Virus genome (UHGV): UHGV-0139780
Origin: a virus
DNA: 49,330 nucleotides
Strand: one strand, 5' to 3'
Shown piece by piece: positions 4,908 through 26,842 of the stretch. The notes under the pieces are model-generated. The model was not told the DNA's origin. It worked only from the letters and a program-made list of their open reading frames with translations, and did no database searches. Position numbers and translations under genes: made by a program. Positions within the stretch are counted from its first letter, which is position 1. Every line of letters begins with the position of its first letter.

Positions 4908-6248
4908 ATGACCGAACTTTGCCATACAGGACGCGGGCTGTCCGAAGAGTTTGATGAAGATTTCCAGAACAGATTGACGGCATATTTTTGTCGTGATCAC
5001 GAGTTTCTTACTCGTGCGGGAGATCTGGTTGTGCCTAGCCAATTTGCCAATGCGGCCAATGCCATATTGGTTAATATGGTTTCGGGCTATTACCGTATGT
5101 ACAAGAGCGCGCCCTCTTCATCTGCGATTCTGGATCTGCTTAAGCGTGCGAAACGCGATAAGACTATCCGTGAGGAACTATTCGCGGATGTTGTTGCTGC
5201 GTTTAAGCGCATCCTTGCAGAAAAATTGTCCGATACCTCGTACATGGTTGACCAGGTATCAACCTTCGCAAAAAGCGTAGCGTTTGATGATGCTCTGATT
5301 AAGGCTGCTGAACTTAAAGAGAAAGGCGACTTTCAGGGGGCGATGGCAATCATGGCCAAGGTTCAGCAGATTGGATCGAACGAAGCGGCCGGAATCTATG
5401 ACTACTACACTTCCGCAAGTGAGCGATTGAAAGCGCGTGAATATGAGGCTTCAGAGGAGTATGTGCCAAACAGCATTACAACTGGACTCCCTCTGCTCGA
5501 TAGGTTGCTGTACCAAAAAGGCTGGGCGAAGCGTGAAATGGTGCTCTTCATGGGGTTCGCTAAATCCGGTAAATCGACCGCAATGGGTGAGTTTTCGGTA
5601 AACGCAACGCTTGCTGGCTACAATGTTCTGTATCTCTCGCTGGAGGTTCACACCACCATTTTATCCGACCGTTTTGATGCAAGATTGTCGGAGACGGAAA
5701 TGTCCAGACTGGTGGAACGGCGCGATGAAGTTCATCGTAAGTTGGCAGAGTTGGGAGCCACTAAGGGGATTGGTAGTTTGTGGGTTGTTGAGCGTCCGTC
5801 AGGAAGTATGTCACCGGCAGATCTGGACCGTATGCTTAACAGTATGAAAGCCAATGGCATGGTGCCTGACATGGTTGTTGTCGACTACGCAGATTTGATG
5901 CGTGCCAGTTATGACCTTCGTGATGATCGCGCCAATATTCGTAGTATCTACACAGATTTACGTGCTCTTTATGACAAACATAACGTTGCTGGAATCACGG
6001 CATCGCAGACAAACCGTGAAGGTGGCGCGTCAGAAGTTGCCACAATGATGCACGCTGCCGACAACATCGAAAAAGTACGTATTGCTGACCTGGTAATAAC
6101 GATCAACAAAACCGAAGAAGAAGAAGCGAAAGGAGAGGCTCGTCTCTACTTTGCTGGTTCACGTAACCAGCAAGGAGGGATCAGCATTCGTGTTAAACAA
6201 AACCTCGAACAAATGCGCTTCATTGAGCGGATCTTAGACGTTACCTAA
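4908..6248 (+). CDS. replicative DNA helicase (DnaB/gp4-like RecA-fold)
   Basis: Walker A GFAKSGKST, Walker B-like VVVDYADLM; conserved ACAAAGGAAAGCACATG start context. Confidence 0.75.
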   Translation: MTELCHTGRGLSEEFDEDFQNRLTAYFCRDHEFLTRAGDLVVPSQFANAANAILVNMVSGYYRMYKSAPSSSAILDLLKRAKRDKTIREELFADVVAAFKRILAEKLSDTSYMVDQVSTFAKSVAFDDALIKAAELKEKGDFQGAMAIMAKVQQIGSNEAAGIYDYYTSASERLKAREYEASEEYVPNSITTGLPLLDRLLYQKGWAKREMVLFMGFAKSGKSTAMGEFSVNATLAGYNVLYLSLEVHTTILSDRFDARLSETEMSRLVERRDEVHRKLAELGATKGIGSLWVVERPSGSMSPADLDRMLNSMKANGMVPDMVVVDYADLMRASYDLRDDRANIRSIYTDLRALYDKHNVAGITASQTNREGGASEVATMMHAADNIEKVRIADLVITINKTEEEEAKGEARLYFAGSRNQQGGISIRVKQNLEQMRFIERILDVT

Positions 6249-6329
6249 AAAATAAGCGTGGAGAACACCTCCACGCTTGATTCATTGGTGAAACAACTTT
6301 TCTTTTGCCAAACCACAAAAGAAAAACAC

Positions 6330-7511
6330 ATGAACCTTTATGTTATATCAACATTTAGGTTGGTCACAATATTGCCTGTTAAAAGTGGAATTATCGTGAG
6401 CGAGCTGAAAGAGCTAATTACCGAATTAGATTTTGAACAATGGTTGGACACTGAAGGTATCGTTTATCGACGTGGAGGTGTGAGTACTCGCGGTCGTGAA
6501 GTGAATATCAAGGAGTGTCCGGTATGCGGCAGCTCCAACTGGAAGGTATATTTCAATCTGACCAGCGGCGTCGGTAAATGCTTCGCTGGTGATCATCCCG
6601 AAGAGATTCAGTTCAATAAGCTGGTCTTCCTCAAGCACTACAGCGGTAAATCACGACGACAGTTCGAGGAATATGTGCAGAACGCTCTTCTTTCCCAGGG
6701 GTGGGCACCAAAGAAAGAAGAGATAGTGCTTGCAAGCACAGTCGAGTTAGAGGGACCACTTGCACTCCCTCGTCATTACGAACTTCCTATAGATGGCCGT
6801 CTTCCAGACTATCTGGTTGAACGAAACATATCGCCTGAAATGGCAAAGTATTTTGACCTACGATACTGCGTCGAAGGTAAGCACGCCTATGTAGATCCGT
6901 ATACAGATCAGGTTAAAGGACAGATATTCGATATGCGAATACTGATACCGGTTTACGATCTGGATGGGGTAATGAAGACATTTCAGGGGCGAGACATTAC
7001 CGGTACAGCTGAACGTCGCTACCTCTTTCCTATGCAGCTTCCAGCTTCAGGTAAGTTCCTCTACAACGGCCATAATGCAGTCGGCAAACAAACTGTTGTT
7101 GTCTGTGAGGGGGCGTTCGATGTTATGGGAGTCAAACGAGCTATTTTTGACGAAGAAACATTACGTGATTACGTGGAACCGATAGGAACGTTCGGGATGC
7201 ATCTATCTGGTAACACTACTCAGGATGCAGAAGATCAGTTAGGCGCGTTCCTGACGCTCAAGGCGCGTGGATTACGTAATGTGATCATGATGTGGGATAG
7301 TGAAAAGCAAGCTATACGAAACACTATGGCCGCAGCCAGGCGACTGACCAGTATCGGTCTTAATGTCAAAGTTGCGTGTTTGGGTGAGGAAGGACTCGAC
7401 CCGGGCGGTGCAACGCCAGAACAAATTATCAAAGCCTATTATCGGGCAAAACCGTATACCAAACAGTTGGAGTTGCAAAGCAAGGTTTTGGGCATTAAGG
7501 CTCTCTCATAA
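6330..7511 (+). CDS. DNA primase (zinc-finger plus TOPRIM)
   Basis: CPVCGSS...C zinc finger and VVVCEGAFDVMG TOPRIM motif; start placed at the ATG preceded by AAAAGAAAAACACATG; track start 6258 overlaps a hairpin. Confidence 0.7.
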   Translation: MNLYVISTFRLVTILPVKSGIIVSELKELITELDFEQWLDTEGIVYRRGGVSTRGREVNIKECPVCGSSNWKVYFNLTSGVGKCFAGDHPEEIQFNKLVFLKHYSGKSRRQFEEYVQNALLSQGWAPKKEEIVLASTVELEGPLALPRHYELPIDGRLPDYLVERNISPEMAKYFDLRYCVEGKHAYVDPYTDQVKGQIFDMRILIPVYDLDGVMKTFQGRDITGTAERRYLFPMQLPASGKFLYNGHNAVGKQTVVVCEGAFDVMGVKRAIFDEETLRDYVEPIGTFGMHLSGNTTQDAEDQLGAFLTLKARGLRNVIMMWDSEKQAIRNTMAAARRLTSIGLNVKVACLGEEGLDPGGATPEQIIKAYYRAKPYTKQLELQSKVLGIKALS

Positions 7512-15704: not shown

Positions 15705-17987
15705 ATGACGACTACTGCACTGCAAAATGAAAAAAATCCTTCTGATTACCTTGTTTGCAAGTGGTGCGGCAAATCATTTCACTATTTTAAGTCCCATGTA
15801 GCCAATGGTAATTGTGAGGGCATTCCTGAGTCAGTAAAAGATTCCGACCCTGACACCGTACTGAAAATGTACACAACGCAGTTTCCAGATGAGCCAACGC
15901 TATCGAAAAAGGCACTTGATGCAATTCAAGCTAAACGTGCCGAGCAAAAAAGCGAACTGGCCAAATCTTCTGGCGTGACCAGTAGCCCAGGCTACACAGG
16001 CACAGTTGAGTACAAGACAGATCTGGTCGCAGCTCACGAACTGCTAAACGTAACGGTGGAAGAACTCGGAACAAAACGTGGGACGCCGCTCATGGTTAGC
16101 GTCAACGTCAATACGCCGTTTCCAGAGTTCGTTCCCGAAGTGAAGAAGGGCTACGTATATGGCGACTTCGAACTGATCAAAGATATTTTCATGATGCTTG
16201 AACTTGGCATACCTGGCTATTTGTGGGGTCATGCAGGAACAGGCAAGGCCCAGCCAGTAGATACGCTAATCCCAACACCAAGAGGGATGGTGCGCTTTGG
16301 TGATTTGAAAGTTGGTGATGAGGTATTCGGATCTAACGGAAAGTCCACAAAGATAACAGGCATCTTCCCACAAGGGATTAAGCCAATTTATCGCATCACC
16401 TTTAGAGATGGTTCTAGCACACGAGCTTGCGGCGAACATCTTTGGCATATCCTACCTACACATGAATACAAGACCAAAAACGGCAAGAGCTACAAGCAAC
16501 ATGCAAAAATCAGAACGACCAAAGAAATGATTGACTTGGGAATCAGAAATTCTGGTGGTCAGTGCAAGTTCAAAGTTCCTTTAACTAAAGCTGTCGAGTG
16601 GCCCTCGCAGGAACATCTCATCCATCCCTATTTATTAGGTGCGTTAATTGGAGACGGTTACTTATTAGGGAACACGCCAGCAATGAGCGTGGGTACGGAA
16701 GACATTGATATCAAGAGAAGAATCGATTCTCTTCTTCCTGATGGTATGCGCACCAGCAAGCTCAGAAACACGAGTGAAAACGGGCGGCAATTTAATATCA
16801 TCGACTGCAAAAAGTTCCGTCAAAACAGAATGATGGATGAGATTAAACGGCTGGGTTTGAATGTGCAATCAGGGGAAAAATTTATCCCAGATGAATATCT
16901 CTTCGACTCCACTGAAAATCGCCTCGCTTTACTCCGAGGACTGATGGATACAGACGGAAGCGTGAGACAAAACCGTACAAACTTCTCCACCACGTCTGAA
17001 AAGCTGGCTGCATGTGTGAAGTTTCTTGTTCAGTCTTTAGGCGGAACTGCGATAGTAAAAGATGGAGCCGCAGAACGTCATAAGAGCGGTTACTATGCTG
17101 ATATTAACGTGAAAATGTTCATTAACCCATTTTCCGCTGATCGGAAATCCAAAAACTGGTCTCCATCTACCAAGAATCCGCCAAGCAGATTTATCACCTC
17201 TATCGAGGAAGATGGCGAGGCTGAGTGCATATGTATAAAAGTAAGCGCAGATGATGAACTGTACATCACCGAAGAGTTTATCGTTACGCACAATACAACT
17301 CTGCCTACACAGCTATGTGCTTTGCTCAATCGCCCGTTGATCCGTGCCCAACATACAGCATCAATGGAAGAGGCACATGTTACGGGGCAAATTCTGGCGC
17401 GTGATGGCTCTACGTATTTCGAACCTGGCTTGCTTGCGCTCGCAATGAAGCATGGCTGGGTTTACCTCGCGGATGAATACGACTTTGCGTTTCCACAAAT
17501 TCTTGGCGTGTATCAGCCAGTGCTGGAAGGTGAAGCGTTGGTCATCAAAGAGGCGACTCCAGAATGGCGTCGCATTACTCCGCATGAACGGTTTGCTTTC
17601 ATTGGCACTGGCAACACGAACGGATCTGGTGATGAAACCGGCTTGTACCAGGGTACAAACATCCAGAACGCCGCGAACTTTTCGCGTTTTGGCATCGTTT
17701 CGAATGTGAAATACATGAGCAAAGAGGCAGAGATCAACATGTTGATAAATGCCGGCATTGTGGATGAATACGCTGAAAAGATGGTTAAGTTTGCCGGTAT
17801 CGTTCGCGATGGATACGAAGAACACAATATTAGCCAACCAATTGGGCCTCGTGAGCTTTTGTTGTCGGCCAAGATTGGAATGATGCGAGGCGATTTTGTG
17901 ACAGGTATTGAGCGTTCTTTCATTAACAAACTCCCTTCAGCTTCTGCGCAAGCGGCACGTGAAGTTGTTCAAAAAATATTTGGTTAA
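15705..17987 (+). CDS. AAA+ ATPase (CobS/MoxR-like) interrupted by an intein
   Basis: Walker A GHAGTGK is split from the TTLPTQL continuation by 349 aa carrying two LAGLIDADG-like motifs and a terminal HN. Confidence 0.6.
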   Translation: MTTTALQNEKNPSDYLVCKWCGKSFHYFKSHVANGNCEGIPESVKDSDPDTVLKMYTTQFPDEPTLSKKALDAIQAKRAEQKSELAKSSGVTSSPGYTGTVEYKTDLVAAHELLNVTVEELGTKRGTPLMVSVNVNTPFPEFVPEVKKGYVYGDFELIKDIFMMLELGIPGYLWGHAGTGKAQPVDTLIPTPRGMVRFGDLKVGDEVFGSNGKSTKITGIFPQGIKPIYRITFRDGSSTRACGEHLWHILPTHEYKTKNGKSYKQHAKIRTTKEMIDLGIRNSGGQCKFKVPLTKAVEWPSQEHLIHPYLLGALIGDGYLLGNTPAMSVGTEDIDIKRRIDSLLPDGMRTSKLRNTSENGRQFNIIDCKKFRQNRMMDEIKRLGLNVQSGEKFIPDEYLFDSTENRLALLRGLMDTDGSVRQNRTNFSTTSEKLAACVKFLVQSLGGTAIVKDGAAERHKSGYYADINVKMFINPFSADRKSKNWSPSTKNPPSRFITSIEEDGEAECICIKVSADDELYITEEFIVTHNTTLPTQLCALLNRPLIRAQHTASMEEAHVTGQILARDGSTYFEPGLLALAMKHGWVYLADEYDFAFPQILGVYQPVLEGEALVIKEATPEWRRITPHERFAFIGTGNTNGSGDETGLYQGTNIQNAANFSRFGIVSNVKYMSKEAEINMLINAGIVDEYAEKMVKFAGIVRDGYEEHNISQPIGPRELLLSAKIGMMRGDFVTGIERSFINKLPSASAQAAREVVQKIFG
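16248..17294 (+). mobile_element. intein with LAGLIDADG homing-endonuclease domain inside the AAA+ ATPase P-loop
   Basis: LLGALIGDGYL and LLRGLMDTDGSV blocks; ends ...VTHN with Thr as +1 residue; N-terminal residue Ala (non-canonical); excision restores GHAGTGKTTL. Confidence 0.6.
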
Positions 17988-18167: not shown

Positions 18168-21100
18168 ATGAAGGCTCTGATGGTTCGAACTGACTTCTCT
18201 CTTGGGGAGTCGGCTCTAAAAGCAGAAAACGCGGTGAAGATTGCCAGAGAAGCTGGCTACACCGCTGTAATTTCGGCAGATAGCATGAATATTGCGAGTG
18301 TTATTCCACTACAACGTGCCGCTGGTGACGACATGGCGGTTATTTGTGGTGTGAAACTAAACATTGTTGATGATCCCACATACGAGCACCGGGCTAAACT
18401 TGCTAAAGAGTCTATGGGATGTATGGAATCATTAGAGCGTGGGCGGAACTACTCCTTTACCGCTCTAATTAAAAATGAGCAGGGATATCGAGACATCTGC
18501 GAACTAATGACGGCGGCCAACACACGAGAACAGTTCTACTTTGTACCGCGTCTCTCGCTCGAACAGTTGGTTTCTACATATGCCAAAGGCAACATCATCC
18601 TGCTAACTTCCGACATCGGTAGCGTGTTCCAACGCAACGATTTTGCAAAAATCATAAGCACATTGATTACAGCGGGTGGAAAAGACAACTTCTATAGTGT
18701 GATTTATCCGCACCCTACCCCATTCTACGACCAGATTAACGTCCGGGCGATGAAAGTCGCCAGCGCACTGAAAATAGAGCCAGTAGCGTTTTATCCCGCT
18801 TATTACGAATCGATCGACGATGCAGACATTAAAGACATTGCGCACATGGTTACGAACAACATCAAAATCGACCAGCCGCATCGTCTGCGTATCCCCCACC
18901 AGCGAGATAACGCCGTCAATGGTCGCCGCCATCTCCTTGAGGCGCTTAAAGCCTTCTCCGTTCGCATGGATGTGCCGGTAACAGCTGCAATGGCCTCAAC
19001 AACGCAGGATACCATTATCGATGCCTGCACATGGCGCTGGCATGAATTGCCACCAGCACTGCCAAAGATGGCAGACGACGAGCCTGCAACTCTGATGAAA
19101 CTGGCCGTTGCTGGGCTGCGTAAACGTCTTACCACAAAAGAGTTTGGCTACACACCACCGGCTTCTGAGAACAGGGTTTATGTTGAGCGACTTAAGTACG
19201 AAATGGATACGCTGACTCGCCTGGGATTCTGTGGTTACTTCCTGATGGTACGCGATCTGATGAATCACAGCCGTGAAACTGGCATTCCTGTCGGGCCTGG
19301 TCGTGGTTCCTCTGCTGGCTCTCTGGTGGCATGGTGCATAGGCATAACCAACGTCGACCCTATCCGTCACGGTCTTCTGTTTGAACGTTTCATCAACCCT
19401 GAGCGTCTCGACTTGCCAGATGCGGATTTGGACTTCAGCCAGGCACGTCGCCATGAGGTGATCGAGTATCTGAATGAACGCTACGGCGAAGATTACGTTG
19501 CAGGCATTCCGAACTTCACATATCTGGGCGCAGCCTCTGCACTACGTGACACTGCTCGTATTTATGGTGTGGAGTCCGCAGATATGGCGGTATCAAAAGA
19601 ACTGAAGAACGTCGAGGATGATAGCCTTCCACTGGAGGAGCTGCGCGAACAACTGGCAAGTCTCGACAAATACGCGACAAAATACCCTGATGCATTCAAT
19701 GCAGCCTGCAAGTTACAAAGCCTTATGCGTGGCTTTGGTAGACATGCGGCAGGGATGATCGTAGCAGGTGTTCCTCTGACAGAACGTACACCGGTTGAAC
19801 GACGTGGTGACGCGCGTTGTATCGCATTTGACAAGCGTTACTGCGAGGCTATGGGCCTAATTAAGCTGGACGTGCTTGGCCTGGCAACTCTCGATTTGCT
19901 CGATAGTGCAAAACGCTACATTAAAGAGAACACAGGTGAAGATATCAATCTTGATGCCATATCTCTTGAAGATCGCAAGGTGCTGGATGGTTTTGCTGCT
20001 GGGTACACTCAAGGTGTTTTCCAGCTTGAATCAGGCCCAATGCGCAAGCTGCTTAAAGATTTAGGTGGTGGAATTGAGCCAATGAGCTTTAAAACGGTTG
20101 TTGCTACGACTGCGCTCTTCCGGCCGGGACCAATTCAGTCAGGCATGTTGGATGATTATGTTTCTGTCGCCAAAGGCTTTATGACGCCGGAATCATTACA
20201 CCCCGTTCTTGATGAACTTACCGCAGAAACAAATGGCGTGATTCTCTATCAGGAACAGACGATGAACGCGACTCGATTGCTTGCTGGCTTCACAATGGCT
20301 GAAGCTGACGGTGTGCGTTCCGCAATCGGTAAGAAGAACATGGAAAAAATGAAGAGCATGGGCGAGAAGTTCATCGTTCAGGCTCAAGCTGGCTGGATAG
20401 ACGTTGAGCTGGAAGATGGCACTACACAGCGCATTCACCGTGCGGAACATTTTAAATGCGAAGACGGAACCCTGAAAACTGTCGAAGAAGCACTTGAGCA
20501 CGGAGCAAAACTACCTATAAACGCAGTACGCGTTACAGCGTCACATCCAGGGCTATCAGAGATGAAGGCGAAGGAGATCTGGACTGCATTCGAGAAAAAT
20601 GGTGCCTACCAGTTCAACAAATCACACTCTGTTGCTTACTCCTTAATCAGTTATCAATCTATGTGGTTGAAAACTCATTATCCCGCAGAGTTTTTCGCTG
20701 CTGCTCTCACTATTCTTGGCGAAGATAAACACCAGGGGCTGGTTAAAGATGCGCTGACCTATGGTATTCGCGTATTGCCACCAGACGTTAACGTGTCATC
20801 TAACCGAATCGAGATCCGCACGCTTGAAGATGGCAGCCAGGTGCTGTATGCGCCCTTCTCTGCTGTGAAGGGGTGTTCTGAGAATGGCTGCCAAGCCATC
20901 ATGAGAGCGCGAGAAAAAGTTGGCGGCAAATTCGAGTCACTGGCGCAATTCGAAGAAGCTGTCGAGAAACGTTCCTGTAATAGTCGAGTGCGCGAATCAC
21001 TGCAAAAAGTAGGTGCGTTTGCATCCATAGAGCCAGGTAGTCTGCCAGCAACTGATCCAGAGCGTCTCCGCGACCAGGCAGAATTGATGGGAAACCTTGT

Positions 21101-21686
21101 CATAGATGCAGTTAAAGCCTCACGTCCGTTTGAGATGAACCCCAAACGTTCGGCTGAGATTAACGTGCTCATGACACGGATGGCGGCTGAAATGAGCTTA
21201 GGTGATGAACTAATCCGCCCCAGCATTGGTATTAAGCCGAAAATCATGATCATTCTGGACAATGCAAACGGTAATGATGCTCGAACCGGTTACTTCATGG
21301 AGAACGGATACGACGATTTTAAGGCCAAGCTGTTGACGGCTGGAGATCTGCGCATGGGCGATATCTATGTCACAGGCGTTTGCAAAAAGATGAAAGACAA
21401 AGAAAAGGACTACACCAAAGACGAGATCGGCCAGTTCACCGACTTTATGCGTGAAGAGATCAATCTGGTGCGTCCGACCTATGTGCTGACGTGTGGCAGC
21501 CGGGCAACGGCATTGTTTAACAACAAAAACAAGCCATCCGATTTGGTCGGCAGGAAGGAGTATCTTCCAGACCTTGACGTTACTGTCTTTTACGGGTTTA
21601 ACCCCAACATTCTTTACTTCAGACCTGAAGAGGGGGAACGACTAGAAGCGATATTAGCCGACGTAGCAGAAACTATTAAGACGTGA
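18168..21686 (+). CDS. dnaE: DNA polymerase III alpha subunit (DnaE-type, PHP domain) with C-terminal extension
   Basis: Recalled DnaE blocks: GFCGYFLMV, GIPVGPGRGSSAGSLVAWCIGIT, LLFERFINPER, PDADLDF. Confidence 0.85.
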   Translation: MKALMVRTDFSLGESALKAENAVKIAREAGYTAVISADSMNIASVIPLQRAAGDDMAVICGVKLNIVDDPTYEHRAKLAKESMGCMESLERGRNYSFTALIKNEQGYRDICELMTAANTREQFYFVPRLSLEQLVSTYAKGNIILLTSDIGSVFQRNDFAKIISTLITAGGKDNFYSVIYPHPTPFYDQINVRAMKVASALKIEPVAFYPAYYESIDDADIKDIAHMVTNNIKIDQPHRLRIPHQRDNAVNGRRHLLEALKAFSVRMDVPVTAAMASTTQDTIIDACTWRWHELPPALPKMADDEPATLMKLAVAGLRKRLTTKEFGYTPPASENRVYVERLKYEMDTLTRLGFCGYFLMVRDLMNHSRETGIPVGPGRGSSAGSLVAWCIGITNVDPIRHGLLFERFINPERLDLPDADLDFSQARRHEVIEYLNERYGEDYVAGIPNFTYLGAASALRDTARIYGVESADMAVSKELKNVEDDSLPLEELREQLASLDKYATKYPDAFNAACKLQSLMRGFGRHAAGMIVAGVPLTERTPVERRGDARCIAFDKRYCEAMGLIKLDVLGLATLDLLDSAKRYIKENTGEDINLDAISLEDRKVLDGFAAGYTQGVFQLESGPMRKLLKDLGGGIEPMSFKTVVATTALFRPGPIQSGMLDDYVSVAKGFMTPESLHPVLDELTAETNGVILYQEQTMNATRLLAGFTMAEADGVRSAIGKKNMEKMKSMGEKFIVQAQAGWIDVELEDGTTQRIHRAEHFKCEDGTLKTVEEALEHGAKLPINAVRVTASHPGLSEMKAKEIWTAFEKNGAYQFNKSHSVAYSLISYQSMWLKTHYPAEFFAAALTILGEDKHQGLVKDALTYGIRVLPPDVNVSSNRIEIRTLEDGSQVLYAPFSAVKGCSENGCQAIMRAREKVGGKFESLAQFEEAVEKRSCNSRVRESLQKVGAFASIEPGSLPATDPERLRDQAELMGNLVIDAVKASRPFEMNPKRSAEINVLMTRMAAEMSLGDELIRPSIGIKPKIMIILDNANGNDARTGYFMENGYDDFKAKLLTAGDLRMGDIYVTGVCKKMKDKEKDYTKDEIGQFTDFMREEINLVRPTYVLTCGSRATALFNNKNKPSDLVGRKEYLPDLDVTVFYGFNPNILYFRPEEGERLEAILADVAETIKT
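21240..21683 (+). other. C-terminal domain of DnaE resembling a degenerate family-4 uracil-DNA glycosylase fold
   Basis: Last 148 aa align by eye to UDG4 block order, with catalytic motifs altered (DNANG in place of GEAPG; NPN in place of HPS). Confidence 0.35.
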
Positions 21687-21693
21687 TCCAATA

Positions 21694-21719
21694 AACATGG
21701 CCATAAAGGCCATGTTTTC
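21694..21719 (+). terminator. hairpin after dnaE (terminator-like, short T-run)
   Basis: aacatggcc ataaa ggccatgtt then ttcc; overlaps the first codons of the track ORF 21697. Confidence 0.45.
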
Positions 21720-21789
21720 CCTTATCCCCTCACATCCCCCTATCTTCAAGCTCATTGCTTCATCATCACAATGCTATAATAAATACAAA

Positions 21790-22245
21790 ATGATAAGTGA
21801 TAAGGAAATGCTCATGTTCGCCGATATTTACGAGAAAATAATGTCTGATCTCGAGTTTGACCGAGACAATCTGGAAGAAGTCTGGCGTAGACAACCCCGC
21901 CTTTTAATGGAGTATGGCTCAAAACTCGCTCATGCAGAAAGAAGTGTCGCAGAGGCAAAACTTAACCTTGAAGCTGTTGAAGCCAAGCTATACGACACAG
22001 AGCGTAAGAACTTGAGTATGAACGGCATTAAGTTCAATGAGTCTGTACTGGACGCTAAGGTTAAAACAAACCCACAGTATCTGTCTAAACGGCAGAAGTT
22101 GGATGAAGCACGGCACATCGCAGACATATACAAACATGCTGTCGCCGCCTTTTCGCATCGCCGAGACATGATCGTTCAGGCGTCGAAGATGGCCATCGTT
22201 GAGTTAGATCGATTAGGCTCTGAACGCTTTATTACTCCCCGCTGA
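21790..22245 (+). CDS. hypothetical protein (possibly UvsY-like recombination mediator; weak)
   Basis: Start moved to ATG at 21790, downstream of the hairpin and a TATAAT-like box; about 151 aa, mostly helical and charged. Confidence 0.35.
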   Translation: MISDKEMLMFADIYEKIMSDLEFDRDNLEEVWRRQPRLLMEYGSKLAHAERSVAEAKLNLEAVEAKLYDTERKNLSMNGIKFNESVLDAKVKTNPQYLSKRQKLDEARHIADIYKHAVAAFSHRRDMIVQASKMAIVELDRLGSERFITPR

Positions 22246-22362
22246 TTTTTGATAGATAATAAGTATGTACTGATCTATCATTTGACAGCTCGAAAAAGCC
22301 ACGAATGAACGAAAGCCCAACGCGCATAGCGCCATCGGTCAAATCACAACAAGGAGAAACAC

Positions 22363-23391
22363 ATGTCTAAGACATTACTTGATTTGCTTAACAAAACTCG
22401 TAAAGACATTGCCGCCAAACGTGGTAACAACGTTGATCTGGCTCGCTTAAAAGATGGCATCAACTATATCCGTATCTTCCCGAATAAAGACGATCCAAAT
22501 GGTAAGTTTTTCCAGACTTTCGGTATGCACTACGTTAAGTATCAGAACGAGGACGGTAAAGAAGCCACCAACGCTTATATTTGTGAGCAACAAACTCACG
22601 GTCGCGCTTGTCAGCTATGCGAAATGGTGATGGAAGGTCGCGCTCGTCACAAGGATAACACAGCAATGGAAGATCGCATCAGTAAAATGCGCGCGTCCCC
22701 TCGCTACCTAGTCAACGGTGTTCTGTCTGCGCGTGAAGACTTTGCCGATGCAGAGAAATGCCAGTTAATCGAATTGCCGTCCACGGTCTTCGACGATATC
22801 TGCAAAGCAATCGCCGAAGACATTGCTGACGATATCGGAAATCCACTGAGCAAAGAGGAAGGCTACGCATTCCTGATTAATCGCACTGGCTCTTACCCCA
22901 ATACCGTATATGACCTCACGCGTAAGCGTAAAGTCTTCAACGGCGATATCGAAGATAAATTCTGGAACACCCAGCATGATCTAAGCGCATTCGTAAATCA
23001 GGCTGATGAAACTCGTCTTCTCTCGACAATTCGCACTATGGGCCGTCTGATTGGCATCGCAGCACCAACTGCCTCTGCATCTGCACCAGCAATTTCCTCT
23101 ACCGCGAAAACATCGGCCGCGGCACTGCCTGGATTTGGCTCTGTCACTGGTCATACGGAGGGTGCGACTGCTGTAGCAACCGCTCACACCCCAGCTTCTG
23201 AACCAACCAGTCTGGTTGATGAAGAAATCCTCCGTGCCGTTGAAACTGAATTTAAACCAGAAGCAAGTTCCGCTGCCGTTGCCGTATCAGTCAAAGAGTC
23301 TGAAGCAGTCGCAGCGACATCTGTAGCAGCCGCATCTGCGACGGAAGATGAAGGTCTGGATGATCTACTGAGAGAGCTTGACTCTCTGTAA
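22363..23391 (+). CDS. gp32-like single-stranded DNA-binding protein
   Basis: IRIFPNKDD block, Cys/His cluster (CEQQTHGRACQLC), Ala/Ser-rich linker and acidic C-terminus (DDLLRELDSL), as in T4 gp32. Confidence 0.6.
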   Translation: MSKTLLDLLNKTRKDIAAKRGNNVDLARLKDGINYIRIFPNKDDPNGKFFQTFGMHYVKYQNEDGKEATNAYICEQQTHGRACQLCEMVMEGRARHKDNTAMEDRISKMRASPRYLVNGVLSAREDFADAEKCQLIELPSTVFDDICKAIAEDIADDIGNPLSKEEGYAFLINRTGSYPNTVYDLTRKRKVFNGDIEDKFWNTQHDLSAFVNQADETRLLSTIRTMGRLIGIAAPTASASAPAISSTAKTSAAALPGFGSVTGHTEGATAVATAHTPASEPTSLVDEEILRAVETEFKPEASSAAVAVSVKESEAVAATSVAAASATEDEGLDDLLRELDSL

Positions 23392-23406
23392 TCCCATTAC
23401 GTGACC

Positions 23407-23436
23407 AGTAAGGCGTCTACGGACGCCTTACTTTTT
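23407..23436 (+). terminator. rho-independent terminator after the SSB gene
   Basis: agtaaggcgtc tacg gacgccttact followed by ttttt. Confidence 0.65.
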
Positions 23437-23451
23437 GGAAGGAATGTACCG

Positions 23452-24396
23452 GTGAATTATCTCTTCGTAGATGGCAATAGCCTGGGTTATTACCACCAAA
23501 AATCTGACAAATTGTATAACGGCGAAATGGAAGTACAGGCTGCTTTCGGCTTTGTTAAGAACGTCCGTCGTTATGCCTCAATTCTCCATGCCCGGCCTAT
23601 GATTCTTTGGGATGGATTTAGTGACAAGCGTCGCGACTTTTACCCGGATTACAAGGCAAATCGCGACAACGACCCTGATATAAAAAAGATGAAGGAAGGC
23701 TTTGCTATCCAGAAGCCATACATCCTCAAAATGATGACCGCGCTTGGAGTTAACCAACTCATTGCAAAAGATGCAGAAGCGGACGATCTGGCCGGGCTGC
23801 TGGTATCCCGTATGGCACCGCAGCCAACCGTTGAACACATCTATCTGTTAACAGGCGATGGTGACTGGCTTCAGTTAGTTCGTGAAAACGTAAGCTGGGT
23901 AAGCCTGCGTGAAGACGCCAAAAACAAGCAGGTTAATTTTGAGCAATTTGCGGAGCTGACAGGGTTCGCCACGCCTCGCGCATTTTTGGAAGCAAAAGCA
24001 TTACAAGGCGATAACTCGGACAACATTAGCGGTGTTGGTGGCATTGGTGCTGGCGGTGCGAAAGAGCTGCTGCATGAATGGGGAAGTGTCGCAACGATGG
24101 TACGCGGCATCAACGACGGCTCAATCGTGGTTAATAAAGGGCGTCATAAGACCGCCTTCAACAAACTAGCGAAGAATGCCTTCAACGAGAAAACAGGCTG
24201 TCGAATGCTCGAAGCGTTCAAGAGAAACATCACGCTAATGAACCTGATTGAGACGAAGTTTCCGCCTACCGAAATCGAAACAATCAAAGGCAATCGTGAC
24301 GTGAAAGCATTCGAGCAACTGTGTTACGAGCTGAATTTCCGTTCGTTCCTTGAAGACCTTGAAGTGTTTGTTCTTCCATTCGAAAGGTATTGCTAA
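23452..24396 (+). CDS. 5'-3' exonuclease / flap endonuclease (FEN, RNase H-like)
   Basis: FEN-family blocks by eye: N-terminal FVDGNSL, central LTGDGDWLQLV, and a Gly-rich helix-hairpin-helix-like segment; start set to GTG 23452 after GGAAGGA, downstream of the terminator. Confidence 0.7.
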   Translation: MNYLFVDGNSLGYYHQKSDKLYNGEMEVQAAFGFVKNVRRYASILHARPMILWDGFSDKRRDFYPDYKANRDNDPDIKKMKEGFAIQKPYILKMMTALGVNQLIAKDAEADDLAGLLVSRMAPQPTVEHIYLLTGDGDWLQLVRENVSWVSLREDAKNKQVNFEQFAELTGFATPRAFLEAKALQGDNSDNISGVGGIGAGGAKELLHEWGSVATMVRGINDGSIVVNKGRHKTAFNKLAKNAFNEKTGCRMLEAFKRNITLMNLIETKFPPTEIETIKGNRDVKAFEQLCYELNFRSFLEDLEVFVLPFERYC

Positions 24397-24664: not shown

Positions 24665-26842
24665 ATGGCAAAAGGAAAATCCGCACTGGCACTTGCTCTG
24701 AAAAAGAAAATCGGTAGCAACGACGAAATTCAGAAAGTAACTCATTGGATTGACACAGGCTTTCCTCCGTTAAACAAAGCTATTTCCGGTCGTTACGATG
24801 GCGGTTTCCCATGTGGTCGTATCGTAGAAGTATTCGGGCCGCCAAGCGCGGGGAAAACCTTTTTGGCAACAGCAGCAATGATATCCGCTCAGAAACAAGA
24901 TGGTCTGGCGGTATTCCTCGATCATGAGAACAGTTTTGATGTTGGCCTGGCTGTCGCCAATGGCCTGAACGCAGATGAGGATGACGGTCAGTGGGTATAC
25001 AAGCAGCCTGATACCTTCGAAGACTCTGTAGAGTTGATCGGCACAATACTTAAATTGGTACGTGATGAAGAGCTTATCCCTGAATCAGCACCTATCTGTA
25101 TCGTGGCTGACTCACTTGCGTCTATGGTTCCGAACTCCAAAGCCGAGAAGTTCGAAAAGATGGCTGAAGGCACTGCCAAAGACAAAGATCAGCTAAACAT
25201 GAACGACAATACGGCGCTGGCGCGTGCGACGAGTGCGAACTTTCCTACTCTGGCTTTGTGGGCGCGTAAATACAATGCTTGTTTAATTTTCCTCAATCAG
25301 ATGAGGACAAATCTGGGAATTATGTTTGGCGATAGATGTTTGAGAGGGGATGCAATAATACCTTTCGTTGATGGCACAAGCGCAACTATCCGAGAAATTG
25401 TAGAGAACAAAATAGAAAAAGATGTGTGGTCGTACAACGAAGAGTCAGGCGTTATCGAGCCAAAGAAAATCAACGAATGGCATGATAACGGCCGCAAGCC
25501 AGATGATGAGGAATGGATACACATCAGCACGCTTGGACACAATACCAAAAACGGGGTTATGGCTGCGACATTTACAGAGGATCACCGCATCCTGACTCGT
25601 CGTGGTTGGACTACGGCCAAAGACATAATTGAAGGCGATGAATTGCTTACCAAGCGCACAACTGTTTTAACTAATGAAACCAGGTCTCAAGTTGTCGGCT
25701 TCTTAGTGGGAGACTGCGCTTTTAGAAAGATGAGAGGCGAAAGAACCACAGCAGGCATTGCTTTTCAGGATAATGCGAACCCGTCTTACTCAAAGTGGAA
25801 AGCGGATAAGCTATCGAATCTATTTGGCGAATTTACAGAGACAAAAGTTCTTTTAGGTCGAATGTCAGGAAAGTACGGAATTAGACACGACTCTCCTGTT
25901 AACAACGATTTTAAAGACCTGGAGGATTATGTCAGAAATCCGCTAAAAGTGTTTACGGAGTTTGCCTCCTGGCAAAACTTCGCTCTACTGGTAATGGATG
26001 ACGGTCATCTTGATAGCAGAGGTCGATACGACATTTCATTTAAACGTAAGGCTAAAAAACACTGTGGCAGAGGGTATCTCCAAAACCTGGCCGATATCCT
26101 GTACGACAAATTCAGCATCAGATCAAAAGTTAACGCGCGTAAGGGAGGCCTCCTCTTTGACCAGGAATCCAGCGCCATAATTGCTGAGAATATTGCATCG
26201 TTTGTCTTTGATTCTATGCAGTACAAGCTCCCCTCGGAGTATCGTGGCAAGTTCGTCGATAATTATGATATGCAACCGGTAGTCTCATTCTATGAACATT
26301 GGACGGTCGTCAAAGATGTCCGCGAGAGCAAGGTAAAAAAGGGAGCGGGGAGAACATTAACACGACGTTATGACATTGGTGTTGAAGACAACCATAACTA
26401 TATGGTTGGAAATTCGGCAAATGGATTTATCGTTCACAATTGCACGTCACCAGGTGGCGATTCACCGAAGTTTTACGCTTCTGTGCGCATCCGTCTCGGT
26501 GCATCGGTGATGAAGGATGGTAAAGAGAAGATCGGTCAGGACGTAGGCGCAGAGTGCATCAAAAACAAAGTTGCACCACCGTATGGCAAATGCACCTGGA
26601 AATTCTACTTCGATCCTACTCGTGGCCTCGACGTTATCGAATCGCTCGTCGAGTACATGCTGGAAGAAGGATACCTGCCAAAGAACGCCAGCGGGCGCGT
26701 AGAAATTGGTGACAAGAAATACACCAAATCACAGATCGTCGAGATGTATCGGGAGAAGCCACTAGCTGAAATCATTGCGGCTTTACAGGCAATCGACGAC
26801 CGGAGAGCAAAAGATACCCCCACGGAGTCAGTAGAAGGGTAA
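24665..26842 (+). CDS. RecA/UvsX-like recombinase interrupted by an intein
   Basis: Walker A GPPSAGKT; exteins rejoin as LNQMRTNLGIMFGDR-CTSPGGDSPKFYASVRIRLG, matching the RecA block NQIR..[23 protein letters not shown]. Confidence 0.7.
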   Translation: MAKGKSALALALKKKIGSNDEIQKVTHWIDTGFPPLNKAISGRYDGGFPCGRIVEVFGPPSAGKTFLATAAMISAQKQDGLAVFLDHENSFDVGLAVANGLNADEDDGQWVYKQPDTFEDSVELIGTILKLVRDEELIPESAPICIVADSLASMVPNSKAEKFEKMAEGTAKDKDQLNMNDNTALARATSANFPTLALWARKYNACLIFLNQMRTNLGIMFGDRCLRGDAIIPFVDGTSATIREIVENKIEKDVWSYNEESGVIEPKKINEWHDNGRKPDDEEWIHISTLGHNTKNGVMAATFTEDHRILTRRGWTTAKDIIEGDELLTKRTTVLTNETRSQVVGFLVGDCAFRKMRGERTTAGIAFQDNANPSYSKWKADKLSNLFGEFTETKVLLGRMSGKYGIRHDSPVNNDFKDLEDYVRNPLKVFTEFASWQNFALLVMDDGHLDSRGRYDISFKRKAKKHCGRGYLQNLADILYDKFSIRSKVNARKGGLLFDQESSAIIAENIASFVFDSMQYKLPSEYRGKFVDNYDMQPVVSFYEHWTVVKDVRESKVKKGAGRTLTRRYDIGVEDNHNYMVGNSANGFIVHNCTSPGGDSPKFYASVRIRLGASVMKDGKEKIGQDVGAECIKNKVAPPYGKCTWKFYFDPTRGLDVIESLVEYMLEEGYLPKNASGRVEIGDKKYTKSQIVEMYREKPLAEIIAALQAIDDRRAKDTPTESVEG
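25337..26440 (+). mobile_element. intein with LAGLIDADG homing-endonuclease domain in the recombinase
   Basis: 368 aa beginning CLRGDAII and ending FIVHN with Cys +1; internal VVGFLVGDCAF and FALLVMDDGHL blocks. Confidence 0.7.

Follow-up and report, generated by a model that had tools for sequence, protein, structure and literature searches.

A family-4-type uracil-DNA glycosylase fold with replaced catalytic motifs at the C-terminus of a phage DnaE

The DnaE gene and its domains

The window analysed in this work is a stretch of 49,330 nucleotides (nt) of the virus genome UHGV-0139780. It carries a gene for a dnaE-type DNA polymerase III alpha subunit, and the C-terminal tail of that protein is the subject of this work. 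An earlier note on this DNA had proposed, by eye, that the tail resembles an inactivated uracil-DNA glycosylase (UDG) of family 4. The analysis supports a tail with a family-4-type UDG fold, in which the catalytic motifs are replaced, at the site of the host DnaE C-terminal domains. The gene and the domains upstream of the tail are listed below by their positions in the window, with the amino acid (aa) positions of DnaE.

18168..21686, + strand: dnaE-type DNA polymerase III alpha gene, an open reading frame (ORF) of 1172 aa plus stop (TIGR00594, E=1.7e-188)
18183..18695, + strand: PHP domain, aa 6-176 (PF02811, E=4.9e-13)
19092..20387, + strand: polymerase core and fingers, aa 309-740 (PF07733, E=1.3e-73; PF17657, E=1.4e-43)
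20400..20612, + strand: variable insert, aa 745-815, with the lowest conservation (77-87% aa identity)
20763..21032, + strand: (HhH)2 duplex-binding domain, aa 866-955 (PF14579, HHH_6, E=1.4e-16)
21057..21098, + strand: bridging helix, aa 964-977, with the conserved motif R..DQxEL.PG, a predicted helix with pLDDT (predicted local distance difference test) >90

The models PF02811, PF07733, PF17657 and PF14579 all match above threshold and in the DnaE order of PHP, Pol3 core, fingers and (HhH)2, where the Pol3 alpha match covers aa 309-571 and the fingers match covers aa 574-740. The match to phrog_405 spans aa 4-1171. The gene exhibits 97-98% nt identity to Escherichia coli SSU5-like phage-plasmids and 84.6% to Salmonella phage SSU5. 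Matches to the gene were identified in 747 plasmid records of Klebsiella, Escherichia, Enterobacter, Yersinia, Salmonella and others.

Homology of the tail to family-4 UDGs

The C-terminal domain of the window DnaE is homologous to family-4 UDGs, far beyond chance. The domain and the part of it that the earlier note had delimited are listed below.

21129..21683, + strand: complete UDG family-4-like domain, about aa 988-1172, identified by profiles, AlphaFold2 and Foldseek; the start is approximate
21240..21683, + strand: stretch delimited in the earlier note, aa 1025-1172, which spans the UDG fold from its beta-strand 1 to its C-terminal helix

The coordinates given for that stretch are exact, with aa 1025 at nt 21240 and the end of the last codon at 21683. 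The NCBIfam model TIGR00758 (UDG_fam4) aligns aa 1053-1168 with profile positions 50-169 of 173 (E=6.5e-9) at a score of 35.7 bits, which is under the curated cut-off of 125.3. The archaeal type-4 UDG model matches the tail with E=1.8e-6, well under its curated cut-off, and PF03167 (UDG) matches with 19.6-20.3 bits, slightly under the cut-off of 24.3 bits. The top four matches of a phmmer search of the tail against PDB are all family-4 UDGs, with marginal E-values.

A profile was constructed from 38 diverse tails, each of which is 22-32% identical to that of the window. Against PDB, this profile matched 4zbx (E=1.1e-20), 1l9g (1.5e-16), 1ui0 (8.9e-15) and UdgX (about 2e-11). All 38 tails match PF03167 individually at E<=0.001 (best E=2.8e-16), and precomputed Pfam UDG matches are on record for the relatives. 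A profile that covered the HhH region as well as the tail was searched against 1.84 billion cluster representatives (50% identity), and 205 proteins were identified at E<=1e-3, with 117 at E<=1e-10. DnaEs of 1080-1140 aa and C-terminal pieces of some 390 aa make up most of these. Bona fide family-4 UDGs with GEAPG and HPS were reached as well, at E of about 1e-6. A homologue search with the tail gave only 10 close relatives, mostly fragmentary.

Stand-alone tail proteins of 146-200 aa were also considered and were rejected as gene fragments at contig ends. For instance, fragment P0133 begins at base 2 of its contig, and the frame of fragment P0111 runs upstream into DnaE sequence.

The AlphaFold2 model of aa 1015-1172 has a pLDDT of 94.3. 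A Foldseek search with this model matched 4zbx and 1ui1 (E of about 1e-10, template modelling (TM) score 0.86-0.87, root mean square deviation 2.3-2.6 A) and also 1l9g, and the E-values of the family-4 matches span about 1e-10 to 1e-11. Family-4 UDGs rank first, UdgX next, and then TDG (E of about 1e-6). The likeness that had been judged by eye is hence upheld by the profiles, by the predicted structure and by the comparison of folds. Structure prediction or profile search had been named as what could refute it, and AlphaFold2, Foldseek and TIGR00758 all returned the UDG fold.

Domain boundary and the replaced cellular domains

The tail had been placed at aa 1025-1172. Its UDG-like nature stands, and its start does not: the fold begins about 35 residues earlier, near aa 985-990 (about nt 21129). 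The AlphaFold model of aa 860-1172 (pLDDT 95.5, predicted TM score (pTM) 0.89) exhibits a helix at aa 992-1008 before the first strand, and 193 of its columns are aligned to the 192-residue chain of 4zbx. The same model also matches the Pol III alpha structures 4iqj and 2hpi. In 48 of 134 relatives, the stretch around aa 988 bears the CxxC found at the N-terminus of family-4 UDGs. The UDG-like domain is placed at about aa 988-1172 because the model of aa 860-1172 covers 4zbx as a whole and because the upstream CxxC is found in relatives. It is thus roughly as large as a whole family-4 enzyme.

The UDG-like domain replaces the OB domain as well as the tau-binding domain of cellular DnaE. DnaE family profiles align to the window protein only up to about aa 955, and no OB domain was detected in it by Pfam. 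The tail profile exhibits no similarity to aa 960-1160 of E. coli DnaE (hhalign probability 0.7%). The proposal that the tail takes the place of the usual host tau-binding C-terminus is therefore upheld, since the DnaE profiles end there and no similarity to the E. coli tail is seen.

The motif R..DQxEL.PG lies between the (HhH)2 and UDG-like domains, and its R966 and Q970 show a conservation of at least 90% in the phage DnaE family. Within it, QAELM (aa 970-974) resembles the E. coli clamp motif QADMF (beta-clamp consensus QL[SD]LF) and may be a clamp-binding motif, if a weak look-alike of one. However, it is predicted in an ordered helix, and its counterpart in the E. coli alignment is the helix RAALMNSL, which precedes QADMF. 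No clear beta-clamp motif was found in the coil after the QAELM helix.

Residues of the pocket and of the Fe-S cluster

The equivalents of the three family-4 motifs in the window are listed below.

21255..21269, + strand: motif A equivalent L-D-N-A-N, aa 1030-1034, where G-E-[AG]-P-G is expected, from alignments
21366..21395, + strand: motif 3 equivalent Y-V-T-G-V-C-K-K-M-K, aa 1067-1076, where F-I-T-N-V-V-K-C-R-P is expected
21600..21608, + strand: motif B equivalent N-P-N, aa 1145-1147, where H-P-[SA] is expected, from alignments

The replacement of the catalytic motifs, with DNANG from aa 1031 and NPN from aa 1145 and with GEAPG and HPS absent, was confirmed by alignment to Thermus UDGa (1ui0) and by the PDB profile. 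The offset of the 1ui0 alignment is 46 and is constant from start to end. Residues E41, G42, E47, F54, N80 and H155 of Thermus UDGa correspond to D1031, N1032, D1037, M1044, G1070 and N1145 of the window, and the motif-A Pro is Ala1033.

It has been reported that these residues line the uracil pocket of Thermus UDGa, where N80 forms bidentate bonds to uracil N3 and O4, H155 bonds O2, and F54 stacks (PMC5387724). The k2/Km of 2.4e5 falls to 94 in H155S (about 2500-fold), to 270 in E41Q (about 900-fold), and to 5.5e3 in N80A (about 40-fold) (PMC5387724). Because Thermus UDGa mutants at equivalent residues lose activity, we infer that the window domain is probably without uracil excision activity.

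Residue conservation was counted over 107 fused relatives. Position 1031 is Asp in 84 of them, position 1033 is Pro in 86 (Ala in the window), and position 1037 is Glu or Asp in 99. The family consensus of motif A is x-D-[ACG]-P-x. Position 1070 is Ser, Ala or Gly family-wide, and Asn essentially never occurs there in the fused proteins. Position 1145 is Asn in 60, Ser in 32 and Thr in 12 relatives (104 of 107 together), with His in one, and P1146 follows in 105. Y1067 (104), T1069 (106), K1073 (101) and K1076 (83) are kept in the motif 3 equivalent. E1097 is invariant, and Y1067, T1069, K1073 and P1146 are each more than 94% conserved. Further well-conserved positions are K1076, P1103, G1110, K1120, G1128 and D1137. 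The pocket motifs are remodelled and conserved, not randomly decayed. From this pattern at positions 1031-1146, the loss of the uracil-specific residues is old and family-wide.

All four cysteines of the [4Fe-4S] ligand set are absent in the window protein. The Fe-S ligands are partly kept in about a third of the tail family: among the 134 relatives examined, the helix Cys (position 1090) is kept in 46 of the 48 that bear CxxC. In these 48 relatives (P0023, P0024, P0025, P0036, P0040, P0046, P0048 and others), the VKC Cys is present in four, and motif A often has a Cys (D-C-P) in its place.

A MUG-like active site (Asn1032 together with N-P-N) was considered as a conserved feature and rejected. 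Position 1032 is Thr in P0005 and Gly in P0012, which are close relatives, and it is mainly Ala, Cys or Gly family-wide.

These residues bear on two readings in which the domain still handles bases. In the first, the domain is a glycosylase with changed chemistry or specificity, either slow and MUG/TDG-like or directed at another lesion, that is coupled to the replicase. A glycosylase of changed specificity is kept in play because the pocket loops are conserved, as in the counts for D1031, P1033, D/E1037, N/S/T1145 and P1146. In family-2 MUG/TDG enzymes, activity is seen without the motif-B His, and N-P-S stands at that site. The window motif A, D-N-A, puts an Asn at the catalytic Asn/Asp site of families 1-3, and TDG structures are the next-best fold matches. 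The UDG domains of SP15-like PolA are also active (bioRxiv 10.1101/2025.03.26.645540). However, that Asn is not conserved, Ala takes the place of the motif-A Pro in the window, the window protein has lost the Fe-S cluster, and H155S alone costs the parent family about 2500-fold in activity (PMC5387724). We consider an enzyme of this kind unlikely. A related reading, which is quite unlikely, is that the family-wide remodelled pocket (D-x-P, D/E, [N/S/T]-P, and a small residue at the Asn site) reads or excises a non-uracil template base. If that were true, a C-family replicase would have a built-in checkpoint for lesions or modified bases, with some relatives still using an Fe-S cluster.

In the second, a dead UDG would bind template uracil ahead of the active site and stall or signal, much as the read-ahead pocket of archaeal family-B polymerases does. 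The earlier note had offered this uracil-sensing role, next to a DNA-binding one. The fold and a pocket are retained, and template scanning by UDG domains, in front of the polymerase, is known from SP15-like PolA and from mpox (bioRxiv 10.1101/2025.03.26.645540). However, N80 is replaced by Gly1070 here and by Ser, Ala or Gly across the family, the H155 equivalent is Asn, Ser or Thr, the stacking F54 is Met1044 here, and no sign of dU-containing DNA was found in the element. Uracil sensing is thus highly improbable because every uracil-reading residue is replaced, and essentially none of the 107 fused relatives keeps the Asn and His that read uracil.

Selection, packing and split genes

The ratio of nonsynonymous to synonymous substitution rates (dN/dS) of aa 1015-1172 is 0.02-0.05 among the window, SSU5 and Klebsiella phage pJN2-26, which is indistinguishable from that of the polymerase core. 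The UDG-like domain is under strong purifying selection and is functional in that sense. The predicted structure suggests a single rigid body made up of the (HhH)2 domain, the bridging helix (aa 964-977) and the UDG-like domain. That packing, with its high confidence (pTM 0.89), is what a structural relic would exhibit, namely a domain whose sole part is to stabilise the (HhH)2 region, with contacts to neither DNA nor a partner. Such a relic is very unlikely, since surface and loop residues of the DNA-binding face are conserved in a family with less than 30% pairwise identity, and since the dN/dS is as low as that of the catalytic core.

Split genes agree with such a unit: the HhH and UDG-like domains form a separate polypeptide of 390-420 aa in Acinetobacter plasmids and in many metagenomic phages. 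Two split loci are listed below.

NZ_AP022239.1 (L009 2219-6462), Acinetobacter baumannii plasmid: split dnaE, consisting of a dnaE of 785 aa, a free-standing NUMOD4 homing-endonuclease gene, and a 421-aa HhH+UDG protein
L006 3-1741: relative with dnaE split at about aa 779

A 391-aa C-terminal gene product among the relatives aligns from aa 779 of the window DnaE. The split point at about aa 779 lies within the variable insert, near the borders of the cyanobacterial split-DnaE models NF007079 and NF005616 on the window. The A. baumannii plasmids with the split gene are about 110 kb, and their 421-aa product is annotated as a uracil-DNA glycosylase family protein. The PHROGs files for these pieces are phrog_4335 and phrog_13175, which are listed there as unknown function.

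Part of the gene (20364-21131, about aa 733-988) is unmatched by megablast in phages Cyrano and vB_KpnS_p4727, where nt 1-2196 of the gene match by megablast and the tail matches by tblastn. This pattern suggests mosaic exchange of the insert and HhH region within the SSU5 group.

Comparison with known systems

It has been reported that a DnaE variant found in Yersinia pestis as well as in Salmonella enterica, named DnaEX, carries a UDG domain in place of the OB and C-terminal domains (Timinskas et al., Nucleic Acids Res, online 2013; PMC3919608). The replacing domain was described there as an archaeal-type UDG domain of PF03167 (PMC3919608). DnaEX belongs to the same protein family and has the same architecture, PHP-Pol3-(HhH)2-PF03167-type domain, as the window protein (PMC3919608). 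The DnaEX proteins are orthologues of the window DnaE, with 92-93% aa identity in the tail, and the window copy is the E. coli orthologue. The fusion architecture has already been published and is hence not new. The account of Timinskas et al. consists of one sentence and a figure panel, and the passages of PMC3919608 that were consulted make no link to phage-plasmids, catalytic residues, Fe-S ligands, the wider phage family, or split forms. In the literature searched, no account was found of the substituted catalytic residues, of what is left of the Fe-S site, of how far the family extends in phages, of the split forms, or of the function of the tail, and nothing was found on a pMT1 polymerase with a link to uracil. 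An earlier survey of viral replicases had reported C-family polymerases with a C-terminal region lacking assignment (PMC3201878). The immediate value of the present work is modest: the call is confirmed, the boundaries and residue changes are defined, and both are tied to prior literature. Beyond that literature, the work contributes evidence, a corrected set of boundaries, a description at the level of residues, and the context of the family.

The window domain shares its whole-chain fold (TM score 0.86-0.87) and motif order with the family-4 UDGs of Thermus (UDGa, 1ui0), Thermotoga (1l9g) and Sulfolobus (4zbx), and with UdgX. It differs from the family-4 enzymes in the changes GE[AG]PG to LDNAN, ITN to VTG, and HP[SA] to NPN. 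It also differs in lacking the Fe-S cysteines, in being acidic and not basic, in being fused to a polymerase, and in scoring under the curated cut-offs.

The UDG-PolA fusions of N4-like and other phages likewise hold a family-4 UDG in cis with a phage replicative polymerase, and such fusions (phrog_17, SP-15 and others) are among the fold and profile matches of the window tail. A processivity role has been proposed for the UDG domains of SPO1/T5 and N4-like PolA (PMC3201878, PMC10201439). In the N4-like fusions, the catalytic residues are lost and processivity is the role proposed, which is parallel to the window (PMC10201439, PMC3201878). In SP15-like PolA and in mpox, contacts of the UDG with the template strand have been reported to lie ahead of the polymerase (bioRxiv 10.1101/2025.03.26.645540). 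The UDG-PolA proteins are family-A polymerases in which the UDG is N-terminal, between exo and pol, whereas the window protein is of family C and the domain is C-terminal. The N4-like domains also lack whole structural elements, whereas the window domain keeps the complete fold. The fusion in the window is therefore probably independent of UDG-PolA, because the polymerase family is unrelated, the terminus is opposite, and the fold is complete. It would be the second, apparently independent, capture of a family-4 UDG by a phage replicase, after the family-A fusions. This comparison suggests that a family-4 UDG fold beside a polymerase may confer a general advantage.

Poxvirus D4/E4, a subunit of the polymerase processivity factor, is like the window domain in being a UDG-fold protein attached to a viral replicase, and it is placed on the template (cited in PMC3201878 and bioRxiv 10.1101/2025.03.26.645540). 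Unlike the window domain, it is an active family-1 UDG and a separate polypeptide that is joined through A20/A22 to a family-B polymerase.

A proposed function for the UDG-like domain

SSU5-type phage-plasmids are very common in Enterobacteriaceae and rely on a DnaE of their own for replication. This DnaE works without the OB fold, the tau link and an evident clamp loader, and the obvious candidate for what is missing is the UDG-derived domain. The most likely reading, to which we give about an even chance, is that it is a non-catalytic DNA-handling module, a role also proposed for the inactive UDG domains of N4-like and T5-like family-A phage polymerases (PMC3201878, PMC10201439). The old DNA-binding face of the UDG would be used, with the conserved K1073, K1076, R/K1115 and K1120 and with the wedge position filled by an aromatic residue (1151), and the remodelled conserved pocket (D1031, D/E1037 and N/S/T1145-P1146) would lie in that face. 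The domain would hold the template strand or the nascent duplex beside the (HhH)2 domain. Such a hold may give grip or processivity to a polymerase without a tau or clamp-loader link, and it would compensate for the absent OB and tau-binding domains. The polymerase would work in a phage replisome with its own DnaB-like helicase, primase, gp32-like single-stranded DNA-binding protein (SSB) and FEN.

Three points weigh against a DNA-handling module. The window domain has an isoelectric point (pI) of 5.3 and a net charge of -2, and the median pI of the family is 7.1, compared with about 9 in three bona fide family-4 UDGs. Net charge had been considered as support for DNA binding and was rejected, since it is the opposite of the expectation. 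The conserved D1031, D/E1037 and N/S/T1145-P1146 could equally reflect residual catalysis or base reading. The argument for lost activity comes from mutants of another enzyme, Thermus UDGa.

The acidic domain speaks against a strong general DNA-binding surface, and a protein-docking role is thus also to be weighed. As an adaptor, the domain would couple the polymerase to helicase, primase, SSB or a host factor, and would functionally replace the tau-binding domain and not the OB fold. The tail sits exactly at the site of the tau-binding domain, it is acidic to neutral where bona fide UDGs are basic, and the element encodes a helicase, a primase and an SSB of its own but lacks tau. The gene order of DnaE-UDG, small ORF, gp32-like SSB and FEN is also kept in a distant metagenomic relative, and poxvirus UDG D4/E4 is partly a protein-bound subunit of the polymerase (cited in PMC3201878, bioRxiv 10.1101/2025.03.26.645540). 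However, conservation is highest in motifs A, 3 and B, the loops that classically contact DNA and the base, and not on an obviously new surface. An adaptor is rather unlikely, though by no means negligible.

Distribution and genomic context

The phage and plasmid DnaEs with the tail fall into at least 117 clusters (50% identity). Its taxonomic spread was obtained by tblastn of phage and plasmid records. In phages, it was identified in SSU5-like, Pseudomonas nickie-like and Rhizobium RHEph10-like members, all of about 100-120 kb. The tail is found on 969 plasmid records, including Y. pestis plasmids of pMT1 size and Salmonella plasmids. The tails of a 101.6-kb Y. pestis plasmid and of Salmonella plasmids exhibit 92-93% aa identity to the window. 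Some GenBank and RefSeq records label the tail or the split piece as a uracil-DNA glycosylase (family protein).

The replication module near dnaE consists of a DnaB-like helicase (4908-6248), a DnaG-like primase (6258-7511), a CobT-like protein, an AAA_5 ATPase, DnaE, a 182-aa ORF (21697-22245) of no known family, a gp32-like SSB (22363-23391), a 5'-3' exonuclease (FEN, 23401-24396) and a RecA-like recombinase. In close relatives, genes for a DNA ligase and for a RepB initiator are annotated. Neither a sliding clamp nor a clamp loader was found in the element. The order of DnaE-UDG, a small ORF (157-182 aa), gp32-like SSB and 5'-3' exonuclease is seen both in the window (21697-24396) and in the distant metagenomic L007 (827-3122), and the small ORF is without a match in Pfam.

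The AAA_5 (MoxR/CobS-like) ATPase gene (15705-17987, + strand) encodes 760 aa here and 411 aa in close relatives. The extra 350 aa or so carry LAGLIDADG homing-endonuclease domains inside the P-loop (GHAGTGK | AQPVD ... VTHN | T). The insert is an intein, since the LAGLIDADG domains lie within the P-loop, and it appears to start with Ala, not with Cys or Ser. The RecA-like gene (24665-26842, + strand) encodes 725 aa with an intein splicing domain and a LAGLIDADG endonuclease. The presence of the RecA intein varies among close relatives, since the protein has 357 aa in pMRY16-002_2 and 779 aa in phage PhiR41_1.

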